From the NCBI RefSeq assembly GCF_013167455.1, contig NZ_CP038328.1: a stretch of DNA of 64,000 nt; one strand, given 5' to 3'. The stretch is from Escherichia coli O157:H7. Its GTDB lineage: Bacteria; Pseudomonadota; Gammaproteobacteria; Enterobacterales; Enterobacteriaceae. Below the pieces are notes generated by a model that searched no databases, was not told the origin of the DNA, and saw nothing but the letters and a program-made list of their open reading frames with translations. The position numbers and the translations under genes are program-made. Below, piece by piece: positions 14,745 through 19,363 of this stretch. The number at the start of each line of letters is the position of its first letter. Within the stretch, counting starts at the first letter, position 1.

Positions 14745-15515
<771 letters not shown>

Positions 15516-15561: not shown

Positions 15562-17823
15562 TTACGCCGGAATTTTGTCAATCTTAGGAATGCGTGACCA
15601 CACGCGGTGTGCTGCCATCAGCGTTAACAGTTCATCCATAAAACTACCGTCGGCGCTGTCAGCTTCCACAATCCCTTCTTCACCCTGGTCAGCGACCTTG
15701 ATTGTTGCTTTAAACTTGCGCGCGTCTCCCGCCAGCGCAATCGGTTTAAGGTGTTTGTAGGCTTCCATCAGGTAGTAGTTGGCATCGCCGTTGTCAGCGA
15801 TATCCGCGATATTGCCGCAAGGGACAATGACCGCATCGACCGTCAGCGAAGGCGCACCGGCAAAGGTAGCGGCTATAGGCAACACCGTACCGTCATCCGC
15901 AGTCACTTCACCCATTCGGGAGTAGAGCAGTTTGGCATGAACGCCTTTGGCCTTCAGCGCCTTGAGAATGGCCAGAAGGTCTGCCGATCTCACTTCATCA
16001 TTAAGTAAAATCGCTACCACGCGACCTTTCACATCACCGTCAGGAATGGCGTACAAACTTAAGGATGGATCCTTTTTCAGACCGTTGACGTCCGGAGGTG
16101 GGGTGATATTCAGCTGGTCGTCAGTCAGTTCGATACCGAGATTTTTCGCCACCGCCTGGGCCAGAGTGAGATCAATATGCGCCAGCTGGTCAACAACGCG
16201 CTCACGAATATACGGACGAACGACTTTGCTTAACTCAAAACTGAAACCATCGACAATATGGCGCTGCTCGAATGGCGTCTGACTTAGCCAGAACAGACGC
16301 GGATGGGAATAATATTCGCCAAAAGATGGACTGCGCTCGCGAACTTTATTTCCTTCCACGCGTTCCTGATATGATTCAAAACCGCCGCGTTTCGGTCCCG
16401 GCGGTGTTTCGCGCGGCCAGTTATCGTTGATCGAGTTCGGTTCGTAATTCGCCGGGTTAGTGTCGATCCCCATACGATGCATGCCGTCACGCTGGAAATT
16501 ATGGTAAGGGCAGGTTGGGCGGTTAATCGGAATCTCATGGAAATTCGGCCCACCAAGACGACTGATTTGTGTATCGGTATAGGAGAACAAACGTCCCTGC
16601 AACAGGGGATCGTTGGTGAAGTCCAGACCAGGAACAATATGACCTGGATGGAATGCTGCTTGTTCGTTTTCGGCAAAGAAGTTATCCGGATTGCGATTGA
16701 GCACCATTTTGCCGACACGCTGAACGGGCACCAGTTCTTCCGGGATAAGTTTAGTTGGATCGAGAAGATCGAAGTCGAACTTGAATTCATCTTCTTCAGG
16801 AATCAACTGGAAGCCCAGTTCGTATTCCGGAAAATCGCCTGCTTCAATGGCTTCCCACAACTCGCGGCGGTGGAAGTCCGGGTCACGTCCGGTTAGTTTT
16901 TGTGCTTCATCCCAAACGAGTGAGGCTTTACCTGCCAGTGGTTTCCAGTGGAAACGTACAAACGTTGCCTTCCCTTCGGCATTAATCAGGCGGAAGGTAT
17001 GAATACCAAAGCCTTCCATGGTGCGGTAACTGCGGGGGATGCCGCGATCCGACATCGCCCACATCACGTTGTGCAGAGTTTCAGGTTGCAGAGAAACATA
17101 ATCCCAGAAAGTATCGTGGGCGCTTTGCCCTTGTGGAATTGCCCAGTGTGGTTCTGGTTTTACCGCATGAACAAAATCGGGGAATTTATGCGCATCCTGG
17201 ATAAAGAAGATTGGCGTGTTATTGCCAACGAGGTCAAAAATACCCTCTTCAGTATAGAACTTGGTGGCAAAGCCACGGATATCACGCACGGTATCGGCAG
17301 AGCCAGCACCACCCTGAACGGTAGAGAACCTAACAAATACTGGGGTGATTTTGTTCGGATCTGAGAGGAAATCCGCTTTGGTGATATCGCTTAAGCTTTT
17401 ATATGGCTGGAAATAACCGTGAGCGGCTGATCCACGTGCATGAACAATACGTTCCGGGATGCGCTCATGGTCAAAGTGGGTGATTTTCTCGCGCAGAATA
17501 AAATCTTCCAGCAGCGTTGGACCACGGCTACCGGCACGCAGTGAGTTTTGATCGTCGGCGATGCGCACGCCCTGATTAGTGGTCAGCGCATAATTTTCAC
17601 TGCCTTTGCGTACGTCTTCCAGAGAATTAAGTTTTTCGTTACGCGTATCAGGGGCTTTCAGGCTCCCTGAGGCGGTAGGTTGTGCACCTGGCGGTGTTGG
17701 TTCAGCCGCTGGACGATGAGAGCCGTCCTCAGGTGCCAGTGAGTCCATCCCCGGTTTCGCTTCGCTGGAATCGTGTAGTGGTGACTGGTGCTGATGTGGG
17801 TTCTTTTCGTTTTGTTGCGACAT
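15562..17823 (-). CDS. katE: catalase HPII (large-subunit monofunctional catalase)
   Basis: 753-aa ORF; catalase core plus C-terminal flavodoxin-like extension. Confidence 0.93.
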
Positions 17824-18026
17824 TGAACTCGTCTCCTTAATTTATTACTGAAAGGGCCGCTGTTTTGGTCAAAAAACTCTCTAACTATAGACCACCAGCC
17901 AGACCCCGCTTCGGAGACTATTCTGGAAACGGTGTTATGAAATACACGCAAAGCGGGACGTACAGGGGCTAAATCGGCTAAACTACAGTTTTTCTGATTT
18001 TTAATATGCGTTTAGTGAAGCCAGTA

Positions 18027-18269
18027 ATGAAGAAACCGCTCCGCCAGCAAAACCGCCAGATTATTAGCTATGTCCCACGCACGGAACCCGCGCCGCCAGA
18101 ACATGCGATAAAGATGGATTCGTTTCGTGATGTCTGGATGCTGCGTGGCAAATATGTTGCGTTTGTACTGATGGGAGAGTCATTTCTGCGCTCACCGGCG
18201 TTTACTGTGCCTGAATCCGCCCAGCGTTGGGCAAATCAGATCCGCCAGGAAGGGGAAGTGACTGAGTAA
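18027..18269 (+). CDS. cedA: cell division modulator CedA
   Basis: ORF-track frame 18006-18269; start placed at internal ATG 18027 (MKKPLRQQN) giving 80 aa. Confidence 0.85.
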   Translation: MKKPLRQQNRQIISYVPRTEPAPPEHAIKMDSFRDVWMLRGKYVAFVLMGESFLRSPAFTVPESAQRWANQIRQEGEVTE

Positions 18270-18545
18270 AGATTACGTACCTCCCGGTTTTGCCGGGAGT
18301 TACATGGCCTGAAATTCTCTATTTCATTGCTACATTCATTCAAACCACCTGTAACAAAAAGCTGCCTTTGACGATCTATTGCTATAAATAAGTGATCTTT
18401 TTTCTTTAATTGTTTATTTATTTTAAAATGGTTAAGTTTTGCTAATCATGATGAGCTATTTTTGATAGTTCATCCTGTGGCGTCGCTCTTAAACTTATAT
18501 TGTAAATGACTTAGATTTAAATGAGATAATAATTTTGTTAACAAT

Positions 18546-19313
18546 ATGAGGCGGGAGATGTTTTCTACAAACTTAATACAGAGTAATTATGGTGATTTAA
18601 ATATTAAAAGCCTGGCTTTCGACTCTTTTAAAGAAAGGCTGCAGTCTACTATGACAGCACTCACTTTCTTTATATCAACGGGTCAATGTGACTGCGATGA
18701 AATAGCAGAATCAAACTTTAATTATATGATTGCCTATATGTCTAACATTAACTATGATGCCTCAAAGCCAGGAGCGCCAGCACTTAGTTTTGATACATAT
18801 CTGCAGGACAATGTTAAATATAGAGTAATAATTAATAATCTTTATGGTAGTGAAATTCGGATAAGAGGTATAAATAAAGATTTTATTGGAATGGATGTCA
18901 CTTCTGTATTTCGCCCAGAAAAAATGACCAATTTGATCAGTATAAAAAACAGGTTGGTTATTCACTATTTAAGGACTATATACTATGAACAATATTATAT
19001 ACATCCTGTCGGGAGCATTTTTGCTGCGATTCAAAAAAATGAGAGTCTCCTAAAGTTTCCTTCGATAATATCAATGCTTAATATCAATCTTCTTTTTAAT
19101 CCACTAAATCTTCCGGGAATGGGAAGTGGTATACTTGAAGATATTATGAGTATTCCAGATAGTTCACTTAGAAAACGTCTCGGGTATGAGGTTTTAAGCT
19201 TCTCGCTACAGGCACATTCATTGAGCCAGGAATGTATTGATAAGTTGGACATTTTTTCGCTGACGATCTGTTTAAATATGAGTCAGTATGCATCGCCGCG
19301 ATGGAACATTTAA
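18546..19313 (+). CDS. ydjO: uncharacterised protein YdjO (AT-rich orphan gene)
   Basis: 255-aa ORF in a markedly AT-rich block; an in-frame stop at 18522-18524 limits any N-terminal extension; no recognisable domain. Confidence 0.7.
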   Translation: MRREMFSTNLIQSNYGDLNIKSLAFDSFKERLQSTMTALTFFISTGQCDCDEIAESNFNYMIAYMSNINYDASKPGAPALSFDTYLQDNVKYRVIINNLYGSEIRIRGINKDFIGMDVTSVFRPEKMTNLISIKNRLVIHYLRTIYYEQYYIHPVGSIFAAIQKNESLLKFPSIISMLNINLLFNPLNLPGMGSGILEDIMSIPDSSLRKRLGYEVLSFSLQAHSLSQECIDKLDIFSLTICLNMSQYASPRWNI

Positions 19314-19363
19314 AAAGTAAGGCAACGGCCCCTTTACAAAACGGACCGTTGCCAGCATAAGAA

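Follow-up and report, generated by a model that had tools for sequence, protein, structure and literature searches.

The 64,000-nt stretch of the Escherichia coli O157:H7 chromosome analyzed here (contig NZ_CP038328.1; hereafter the window) carries an AT-rich segment between cedA and tcyP (also named ydjN) that bears the orphan gene ydjO. Database comparison shows the region to match E. coli O157:H7 chromosomes at 100% identity. Positions 18252–19363 very probably constitute an inserted, foreign segment of low GC content in which ydjO is an orphan coding gene, which is bound by H-NS and which has spread by recombination in its flanks. The acquired, H-NS-bound character of the locus is supported but has already been published for E. 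coli K-12 and carries little weight as a discovery. Added here are the extent of the segment, the pseudogene state of ydjO in this strain, the coding status and relatives of the gene, and a contradiction of its use as a marker.

Probable insertion of a low-GC segment between cedA and tcyP

The boundaries of the segment were set by alignment to two genomes that lack ydjO (L004 and L006). The flanks are ~97% identical up to position 18251 and again from 19364 onward, and everything in between differs. The last six codons of cedA (18252–18269, ...QEGEVTE) fall within the variable segment, whereas the genomes without ydjO encode ...QENEVEE, and the mismatches of the cedA 3′ end to this empty-site haplotype are clustered at 18252–18266. 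Empty-site E. coli possess a 46-bp spacer with a single hairpin, ACACCTGTC-GGGAT-GACAGGCGT, followed directly by the tcyP stop codon. Fifty-four cedA loci from GTDB species-representative genomes were compared, 52 of which include both cedA and tcyP. The two genes are convergent, 45–119 bp apart and separated by one hairpin, with a QENE-type CedA tail, in 46 of these 52 loci. Short spacers are present in Citrobacter, Salmonella, Enterobacter, Kluyvera, Leclercia, Atlantibacter and E. whittamii, among others, and four Escherichia representatives, one of them E. whittamii, have a hairpin of the type seen in the empty E. coli genomes. The alignments identify the short spacer as the apparent ancestral arrangement. 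Because 46 of the 52 loci and 1124 of 5426 complete E. coli genomes have this arrangement, the 1112-bp segment is an insertion or replacement, which supports the suggestion made in a first-pass annotation of the window that the DNA was acquired.

The GC content of positions 18270–19330 is 0.339 compared to 0.493 for the entire window, 0.515 for katE, 0.523 for cedA and 0.527 for tcyP. This is the lowest-GC 1061-bp stretch in the 64 kb (z = -3.5), with 0.1% of sliding windows equally low, and the cedA-ydjO spacer alone has a GC content of 0.312. The first-pass annotation, which had singled out this interval as far more AT-rich than katE and tcyP, was accurate regarding composition: GC content is far below that of the flanks. 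The interval was too narrow, as the deviant, lineage-variable segment extends from 18252 to 19363. Among 44 mapped coding sequences in the window, ydjO has the lowest GC content (0.348), the lowest GC content at third codon positions (GC3; 0.310, z = -4.0) and, as had been proposed for examination, the lowest codon adaptation (0.397, z = -2.7) when gauged against a reference set drawn from the window itself (translation genes plus other highly expressed ones). The YdjO protein is rich in Asn (7.1% vs. 3.9%), Ile (10.5% vs. 6.5%) and Tyr (5.2% vs. 2.8%), as noted previously, and also in Ser (10.1% vs. 5.7%). The type III secretion effector gene espL1 (26699–28597, minus strand) forms a second large AT-rich block in the window, with a GC content of 0.394 and a GC3 value of 0.374 that is the next lowest after ydjO.

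No integrase was found among the annotated neighboring genes, no tRNA gene between positions 8 and 30 kb in the window, and a repeat search detected no direct repeats at the segment ends. The absence of an integrase and of flanking repeats had been remarked upon at the outset, and the lack of a tRNA gene extends that observation. The hairpin at 18281–18299 just past the cedA stop codon is retained in all E. coli alleles. Its U-tail is weak and it was not called as a terminator in the consensus scan, but it probably is the cedA terminator brought in by the inserted segment. The changed cedA tail suggests that entry was through homologous recombination with DNA of a donor in which the order cedA-ydjO-tcyP was already in place. 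In the mechanism proposed, a 1.1-kb low-GC segment restricted to Escherichia would have entered where the core genes cedA and tcyP converge, displacing a short spacer with a shared terminator together with the last six cedA codons. The cargo comprises a single orphan gene, its own AT-rich promoter region and a hairpin or terminator at each end. Without mobility genes, the segment would be spread and lost through homologous recombination in the flanking core genes. The outcome is a presence/absence polymorphism in which ydjO is dispensable and decays repeatedly, with purifying selection where it is intact.

Separately, longer cedA-tcyP spacers of 240–905 bp are found in Siccibacter colletis (L054), Klebsiella indica (L051) and two further loci (L040 and L057). 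These spacers have GC contents of 0.51–0.55 and are not AT-rich.

Coding status, decay and relatives of ydjO

Intact ydjO of strain K-12 is 804 nt long, and specifies 267 amino acids, with its end three bases short of the tcyP stop codon. The O157:H7 strain has a 1-bp deletion in which a T6 run at 19252–19257 replaces the T7 run of K-12, with the last 35 codons shifted out of frame. This deletion produces the stop codon that ends at 19313, and the RefSeq annotation of a 100% identical O157:H7 record describes ydjO as 'frameshifted'. In the strain analyzed, ydjO is therefore a pseudogene. Its 3′ end had been placed at 19313, but the frame runs to 19360 once the T7 run of K-12 is restored. The 5′ end assigned previously, 18546, also was amended: the conserved start is the ATG at 18558, with GAGG six nucleotides upstream, and in a divergent ydjO allele CTG takes the place of the ATG at 18546. 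The tcyP terminator hairpin coincides with the last 13 codons of the intact ydjO frame, which encode the residues KATAPIQNGPLPA. The hairpin was scored as terminator-like by the scan and was detected additionally as an inverted repeat. A nonsense mutation in strain ATCC 8739 (Q262*) cuts YdjO within this terminator-encoded tail.

The ratio of nonsynonymous to synonymous substitution rates (dN/dS) was 0.13–0.32 in 15 of 15 pairwise comparisons among six ydjO alleles with an unbroken frame. Values for tcyP were 0.00–0.09 in 14 of the 15 pairs and 0.23 in one near-identical pair. Synonymous divergence (dS) in ydjO is 2–4 times that of the flanks, reaching 0.44 overall and ~0.8 in the first 170 codons. 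The latter value traces to a rare, 76% identical allele (P0006; L062, 3001–3804) that is mosaic: its first 170 codons are deeply diverged (dS ~0.8) and its last 97 codons are nearly identical to those of common alleles, a pattern that indicates intragenic recombination with a deeply diverged lineage. The preservation of 267 sense codons at 35% GC across this divergence, along with a conserved Shine-Dalgarno sequence and start codon, therefore argues for a translated protein, and intact ydjO alleles have the substitution pattern of a real coding gene under purifying selection. Nevertheless, the gene clearly is dispensable. The view that any acquisition is an old one accords with the deep allelic divergence and with a copy at the same site in E. 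albertii.

The distribution of ydjO was assessed in 5426 complete E. coli genomes, a set in which sampling is biased and whose counts describe the collection and not population frequency. The segment is present in 4264–4300 genomes, and 1124 (~21%) possess the ancestral short spacer without ydjO. Empty sites were noted in Nissle 1917, ATCC 25922, APEC O18 and IMT5155, which belong to phylogroup B2, a group that contains major extraintestinal pathogens. Among carriers, an exact 71-mer with the T6 run was present in 304 of the 5426 genomes and an exact 81-mer with an A8 run in 645. The A8 variant, at the position of the A7 run in the window (19033–19039), yields a protein that ends ...AAIQKK* with truncation at approximately codon 162 (protein cluster P0011, 2273 member sequences). 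Summation of the empty, T6 and A8 genomes indicates that at least 38% of complete E. coli genomes are without intact ydjO.

Other lesions in carriers include Q262* in ATCC 8739, multiple changes in Ec1117 and an IS1 insertion in one genome (H56). In strain ES4 (L003, 890–2986), IS1 copies replace a region that begins inside the chb operon and reaches the 3′ end of ydjO, with loss of katE, cedA and most of ydjO. Published work also records insertion sequence (IS) interruptions of ydjO in O104:H4 and in a K-12 derivative evolved under heat. Moreover, two 12-nt direct repeats that are identical at 11 of 12 positions bracket most of ydjO (Table 1), and in Escherichia sp. MOD1-EC7003 (L007, 4265–4461) an exact 892-bp deletion between these repeats leaves a 32-codon 3′ remnant. 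Universal conservation of ydjO with orthologs of known function had been raised as a finding that would speak against acquisition; the gene instead is absent from approximately one-fifth of genomes and has no relative of known function.

A word-indexed search of 5.8 billion protein clusters with YdjO retrieved E. coli sequences only, and a phmmer search of 1.84 billion representative proteins retrieved E. coli sequences and a single artefact. The artefact (P0034; 299 amino acids, E = 1.5e-36) initially resembled a remote homologue but is encoded by a contig (L061, Logan SRR33321306) that corresponds to E. coli cedA-ydjO-tcyP after systematic interchange of A and G (508 A>G, 369 G>A). This public contig thereby provides a fake YdjO homologue that could mislead homology searches. 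Profile searches of Pfam, NCBIfam, PHROGs, PADLOC and PDB with YdjO produced no match below E = 0.3, in agreement with the first-pass impression that the protein has no recognizable domain. The segment matched no phage records, and only three plasmid records, all of which are E. coli sequences of 4.8–4.9 Mb. An Rfam search of positions 17700–19500 gave only a sub-threshold match to a eukaryotic snoRNA. YahL and YjfZ, which are E. coli 'signature' proteins of ~265–270 amino acids, were considered as paralogues and rejected (BLASTP E = 0.22 and 2.1, respectively); YjfZ (DUF2686) matches PF10887 at 1.6e-156 whereas YdjO matches nothing.

The structure of YdjO predicted by AlphaFold2 from a six-sequence alignment had a mean predicted local distance difference test (pLDDT) score of 46.9, with only residues ~190–258 scoring 65–84. 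The low-confidence model has two helices at the N-terminus, a sheet of four strands and a C-terminal half that is helical. Foldseek comparison with PDB gave no match with E < 0.25 and no TM-score > 0.3. Thus, the remote-homology and structure prediction approaches that had been recommended returned neither a homologue nor a matching fold, and the model is of a cytoplasmic-looking, mixed alpha/beta protein with no identifiable fold. The only relative located is in E. albertii, which is a deep branch of the genus Escherichia. In E. albertii NBRC 107761, an open reading frame (ORF) downstream of cedA is 39% identical to YdjO over residues 22–135 (tblastn 2e-17) and runs off the contig end. When used as a protein query this homologue retrieved a single 79-amino-acid fragment and therefore is nearly absent from protein databases; the E. 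albertii fragment used as a DNA query did not match E. coli genomes.

The ydjO upstream region, H-NS and competing explanations

The K-12 spacer between ydjO and cedA (1811053, 320 bp) is one of 78 'promoter islands', which are stretches of at least 300 bp in which promoter-like sites are unusually dense (PMC3661553). In Table 1 of that study the spacer is tied to genes predicted to be foreign by Nakamura and by Lawrence and Ochman, and its code 'K' denotes H-NS binding in the chromatin immunoprecipitation (ChIP) data of Kahramanoglou and Oshima. Thus, ChIP evidence for H-NS occupancy, which the first-pass annotation had proposed to consult, exists for the K-12 spacer in published data. The spacer also contains an H-NS site identified by genomic systematic evolution of ligands by exponential enrichment (SELEX), as well as a 'constitutive promoter' of ydjO, ATGACT-16-AATAAT, that was selected with RpoD holoenzyme and flagged HNS (PMC3946193, Table 2). 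RpoS holoenzyme gave a SELEX peak at K-12 position 1811050 at the 5′ end of ydjO (PMC5493296). The ATGACT-16-AATAAT promoter was recovered independently at 18506–18533 by a consensus scan of the window. TpA steps, A/T tracts and TANNNT hexamers each occur at ~2.2-fold the window average in the ydjO upstream region. RNA polymerase can bind the promoter region on its own in vitro, and H-NS filaments on the AT-rich DNA would keep this polymerase-competent promoter quiet. Expression then would need an anti-silencing signal, possibly acting through a conserved 21-nt block.

This block, GATGAGCTATTTTTGATAGTT (18450–18470), is shared without change by the five E. coli alleles and by E. albertii, in which the rest of the spacer is unalignable. 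It contains an imperfect palindrome, TGAGCTAT-N5-ATAGTT, and is located ~40 nt upstream of the -35 hexamer. The block may be a regulator-binding site or operator. A mini-ORF within it (ATG AGC TAT TTT TGA) was set aside as no usable Shine-Dalgarno sequence precedes it. A more ambitious, and rather unlikely, proposal is that YdjO is a functional, regulated and genus-restricted protein, with the palindromic block serving as operator for a dedicated activator or anti-silencer, which would switch the gene on in a niche where it is needed by Escherichia outside phylogroup B2. The basis for a functional YdjO is purifying selection at dS ~0.8 within E. coli and the 39% identity between the E. coli and E. 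albertii proteins. As a tentative lead, the absence of ydjO from phylogroup B2 resembles the way in which the ETT2 type III secretion cluster is distributed, and the Ser/Asn-rich N-terminus of YdjO would be compatible with a secreted effector. Both ydjN (tcyP) and ydjO were co-induced in serum in an extraintestinal pathogenic E. coli strain (PMC4145685); as tcyP is convergent with ydjO, this signal could equally be antisense read-through from tcyP. A published correlation with H2 production in long-term evolution lines is weak evidence that involves two single-nucleotide polymorphisms.

A number of observations weigh against the segment being an acquired, H-NS-bound insertion. No donor was found, and the description of the segment as horizontal derives from composition and insertion geometry alone. 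The element is patchy within the genus, with a homologue in E. albertii, a remnant in MOD1-EC7003 and empty sites in E. whittamii and others, which a single clean gain does not explain. The association of the 1124 empty-site genomes with phylogroup B2 rests on recognition of a few named strains. The H-NS data are all from K-12 and none from O157:H7, and binding was recorded in two of the three ChIP studies compiled (code 'K' not 'A'; not Grainger) (PMC3661553). The promoter scan of the spacer identified 4 sites compared to 4.2 expected from dinucleotide-preserving shuffles, which is no excess. Matches to the H-NS nucleation motif TCGATAAATT occur at 2.7 vs. 1.6 per kb with up to two mismatches and are not clearly enriched. 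Expression data for ydjO in an hns mutant were not found in the literature that mentions the gene.

One alternative is that ydjO was ancestral to Escherichia and was deleted in phylogroup B2 and other members of the genus, with AT-richness reflecting relaxed selection and not a foreign origin. The E. albertii homologue is consistent with this history as it occupies the same position, is preceded by a cedA tail of the same type (QEGEVAE) and shares the 21-nt block, and MOD1-EC7003 holds a deletion remnant. However, empty sites are not scars: they possess the hairpin and QENEVEE tail like those of other Escherichia and the layout of at least 40 loci in other genera, whereas the two true deletions that were seen (L007 and L003) do leave recognizable remnants. 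As the gene also is in no genus outside Escherichia, ancestry followed by deletion is considered improbable. The emergence of ydjO within Escherichia, either de novo from non-coding AT-rich DNA or by runaway divergence, is judged to have a similarly small probability. The failure to find homologues among 1.84 billion representative proteins or 5.8 billion clusters, the absence of any family, structure or mobile element match, and the poor AlphaFold model (mean pLDDT 46.9) are in keeping with a young gene, but the ancestral spacer is only ~46 bp and 1.1 kb of DNA needs a source. Moreover, the segment is accompanied by a different cedA tail and two new hairpins, which looks like allelic replacement from a cedA-ydjO-tcyP donor, and purifying selection even among highly divergent alleles points to a gene that has long been coding.

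Less probable still is that ydjO is a chance ORF in an AT-rich, H-NS-coated spacer that, if it has a role, serves the neighboring genes as an architectural or regulatory element. Lesions of several kinds (frameshifts, nonsense mutations, IS insertions and deletions) are frequent, with at least 949 of ~4290 carriers frameshifted; no ydjO phenotype was found in the literature on the gene; the last 13 codons are merely the tcyP terminator hairpin; and structure prediction is of low confidence. Nonetheless, a 267-codon ORF in 35% GC DNA is improbable by chance and is preserved at dS values of 0.15–0.8. Furthermore, dN/dS is 0.13–0.32 in every comparison, the Shine-Dalgarno sequence and start codon are conserved, and the ORF is retained in E. 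albertii at 39% identity.

Comparison with known systems, marker use and features of the locus

Low-GC acquired DNA is subject to xenogeneic silencing by H-NS (Navarre 2006; Lucchini 2006; Oshima 2006). The segment resembles targets of this silencing in being of low GC content and lineage-restricted, with a K-12 counterpart that is H-NS-bound in ChIP and SELEX and a promoter that is competent for RNA polymerase. On every feature computed here the locus fits the xenogeneic silencing pattern, with in vivo occupancy taken from the K-12 literature. Like the promoter islands, among which the homologous K-12 spacer itself is listed, it is AT-rich, associated with genes predicted to be foreign, H-NS-bound and transcriptionally quiet (PMC3661553). 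The window is 99% identical to the K-12 island and does not differ from it in kind, being the O157:H7 copy, although the composition-controlled scan gave no promoter-like sites beyond the effect of AT-richness. Unlike a classical island, the ydjO segment is a single-gene 1.1-kb insert without integrase, tRNA or repeats. It does not have the hallmarks of a classical genomic island or integrative element.

The ORFan genes of E. coli, of which Daubin and Ochman wrote in 2004, reportedly are AT-rich and fast-evolving. The ydjO gene is similar as it is AT-rich, taxonomically restricted and without homologues, and evolves faster than tcyP (dN/dS 0.13–0.32 vs. mostly 0.00–0.09). In contrast to typical ORFans, YdjO is longer (267 amino acids), and the gene is at a precise replacement site at which the intact ancestral allele is still segregating. 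The site thus offers a case of orphan gene turnover in which empty, intact and mosaic alleles occur together with frameshifts in homopolymers, IS insertions and a deletion between repeats, and the invariant 21-nt block may provide a testable way into the control of one silenced orphan gene.

YdjO has been described as a 'conserved signature protein' and employed as a quantitative polymerase chain reaction (PCR) marker for E. coli and Shigella, with the claim that it is in all E. coli and exclusive to E. coli/Shigella (PMC11057252). For this same gene, the lack of any DNA-level or close protein match outside Escherichia was confirmed. However, 1124 of 5426 complete genomes lack ydjO, Nissle 1917 and ATCC 25922 among them, and the claim that it is a universal E. 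coli marker is wrong. Nor is the protein exclusive, as E. albertii has a 39% identical homologue; the specificity of PCR with ydjO is unaffected because there is no nucleotide-level match in E. albertii. The published probe ends at the T-run frameshift site. The ydjO assay had a lower detection rate (93%) and a weaker correlation with culture counts (r = 0.65) (PMC11057252), and the absence of the gene from approximately one-fifth of genomes may relate to both values in this water-quality assay.

Features of the locus are collated in Table 1. The gene order in the window is chbG (14757–15515, plus strand), katE (15562–17823, minus strand), cedA, ydjO and tcyP, followed by ydjM and hxpB.

Table 1. 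Positions in the window of the cedA-ydjO-tcyP genes and associated sequence elements.
Feature	Coordinates	Strand	Evidence
cedA, cell division activator, left flank	18006–18269	+	Pfam PF10729 7e-46; NCBIfam equivalog
Lineage-variable AT-rich segment, 1112 bp, GC ~0.34	18252–19363		Alignment to empty-site genomes
Hairpin CTCCCGG-TTTTG-CCGGGAG just past cedA stop codon	18281–18299	+	RNA fold -17.5 kcal/mol, z = -3.4
AT-rich ydjO upstream region, equivalent to K-12 promoter island 1811053_320 / H-NS binding region	18300–18557	+	Composition; PMC3661553 Table 1; PMC3946193 Table 2
12-nt direct repeat, left copy TGACGATCTATT	18369–18380	+	Repeat search
Invariant 21-nt block GATGAGCTATTTTTGATAGTT	18450–18470	+	Allele alignment
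Sigma-70 promoter-like site ATGACT-16-AATAAT for ydjO	18506–18533	+	Consensus scan
ydjO, frameshifted pseudogene in this strain	18558–19360	+	RefSeq; K-12 alignment; translation
A7 run within ydjO (A8 in other lineages)	19033–19039	+	Allele comparison
T6 run (T7 in K-12), inactivating frameshift; creates stop codon 19311–19313	19252–19257	+	K-12 alignment
12-nt direct repeat, right copy TGACGATCTGTT	19261–19272	+	Repeat search
tcyP intrinsic terminator hairpin	19321–19353	-	Fold -23.4 kcal/mol, z = -5.1; U-rich tail
tcyP (ydjN), cystine/sulfocysteine symporter, right flank, convergent with ydjO	19364–20755	-	RefSeq annotation

The TcyP protein is 89–99% identical at the amino acid level among Enterobacteriaceae loci. 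The window derives from an O157:H7 strain other than PV15-279, the reference used in annotation: in the neighboring chb operon, PV15-279 has a 1.3-kb IS1203 insertion that splits the lactose/cellobiose IIA gene of the phosphotransferase system, whereas the window is without the insertion at the corresponding site (about 12320).

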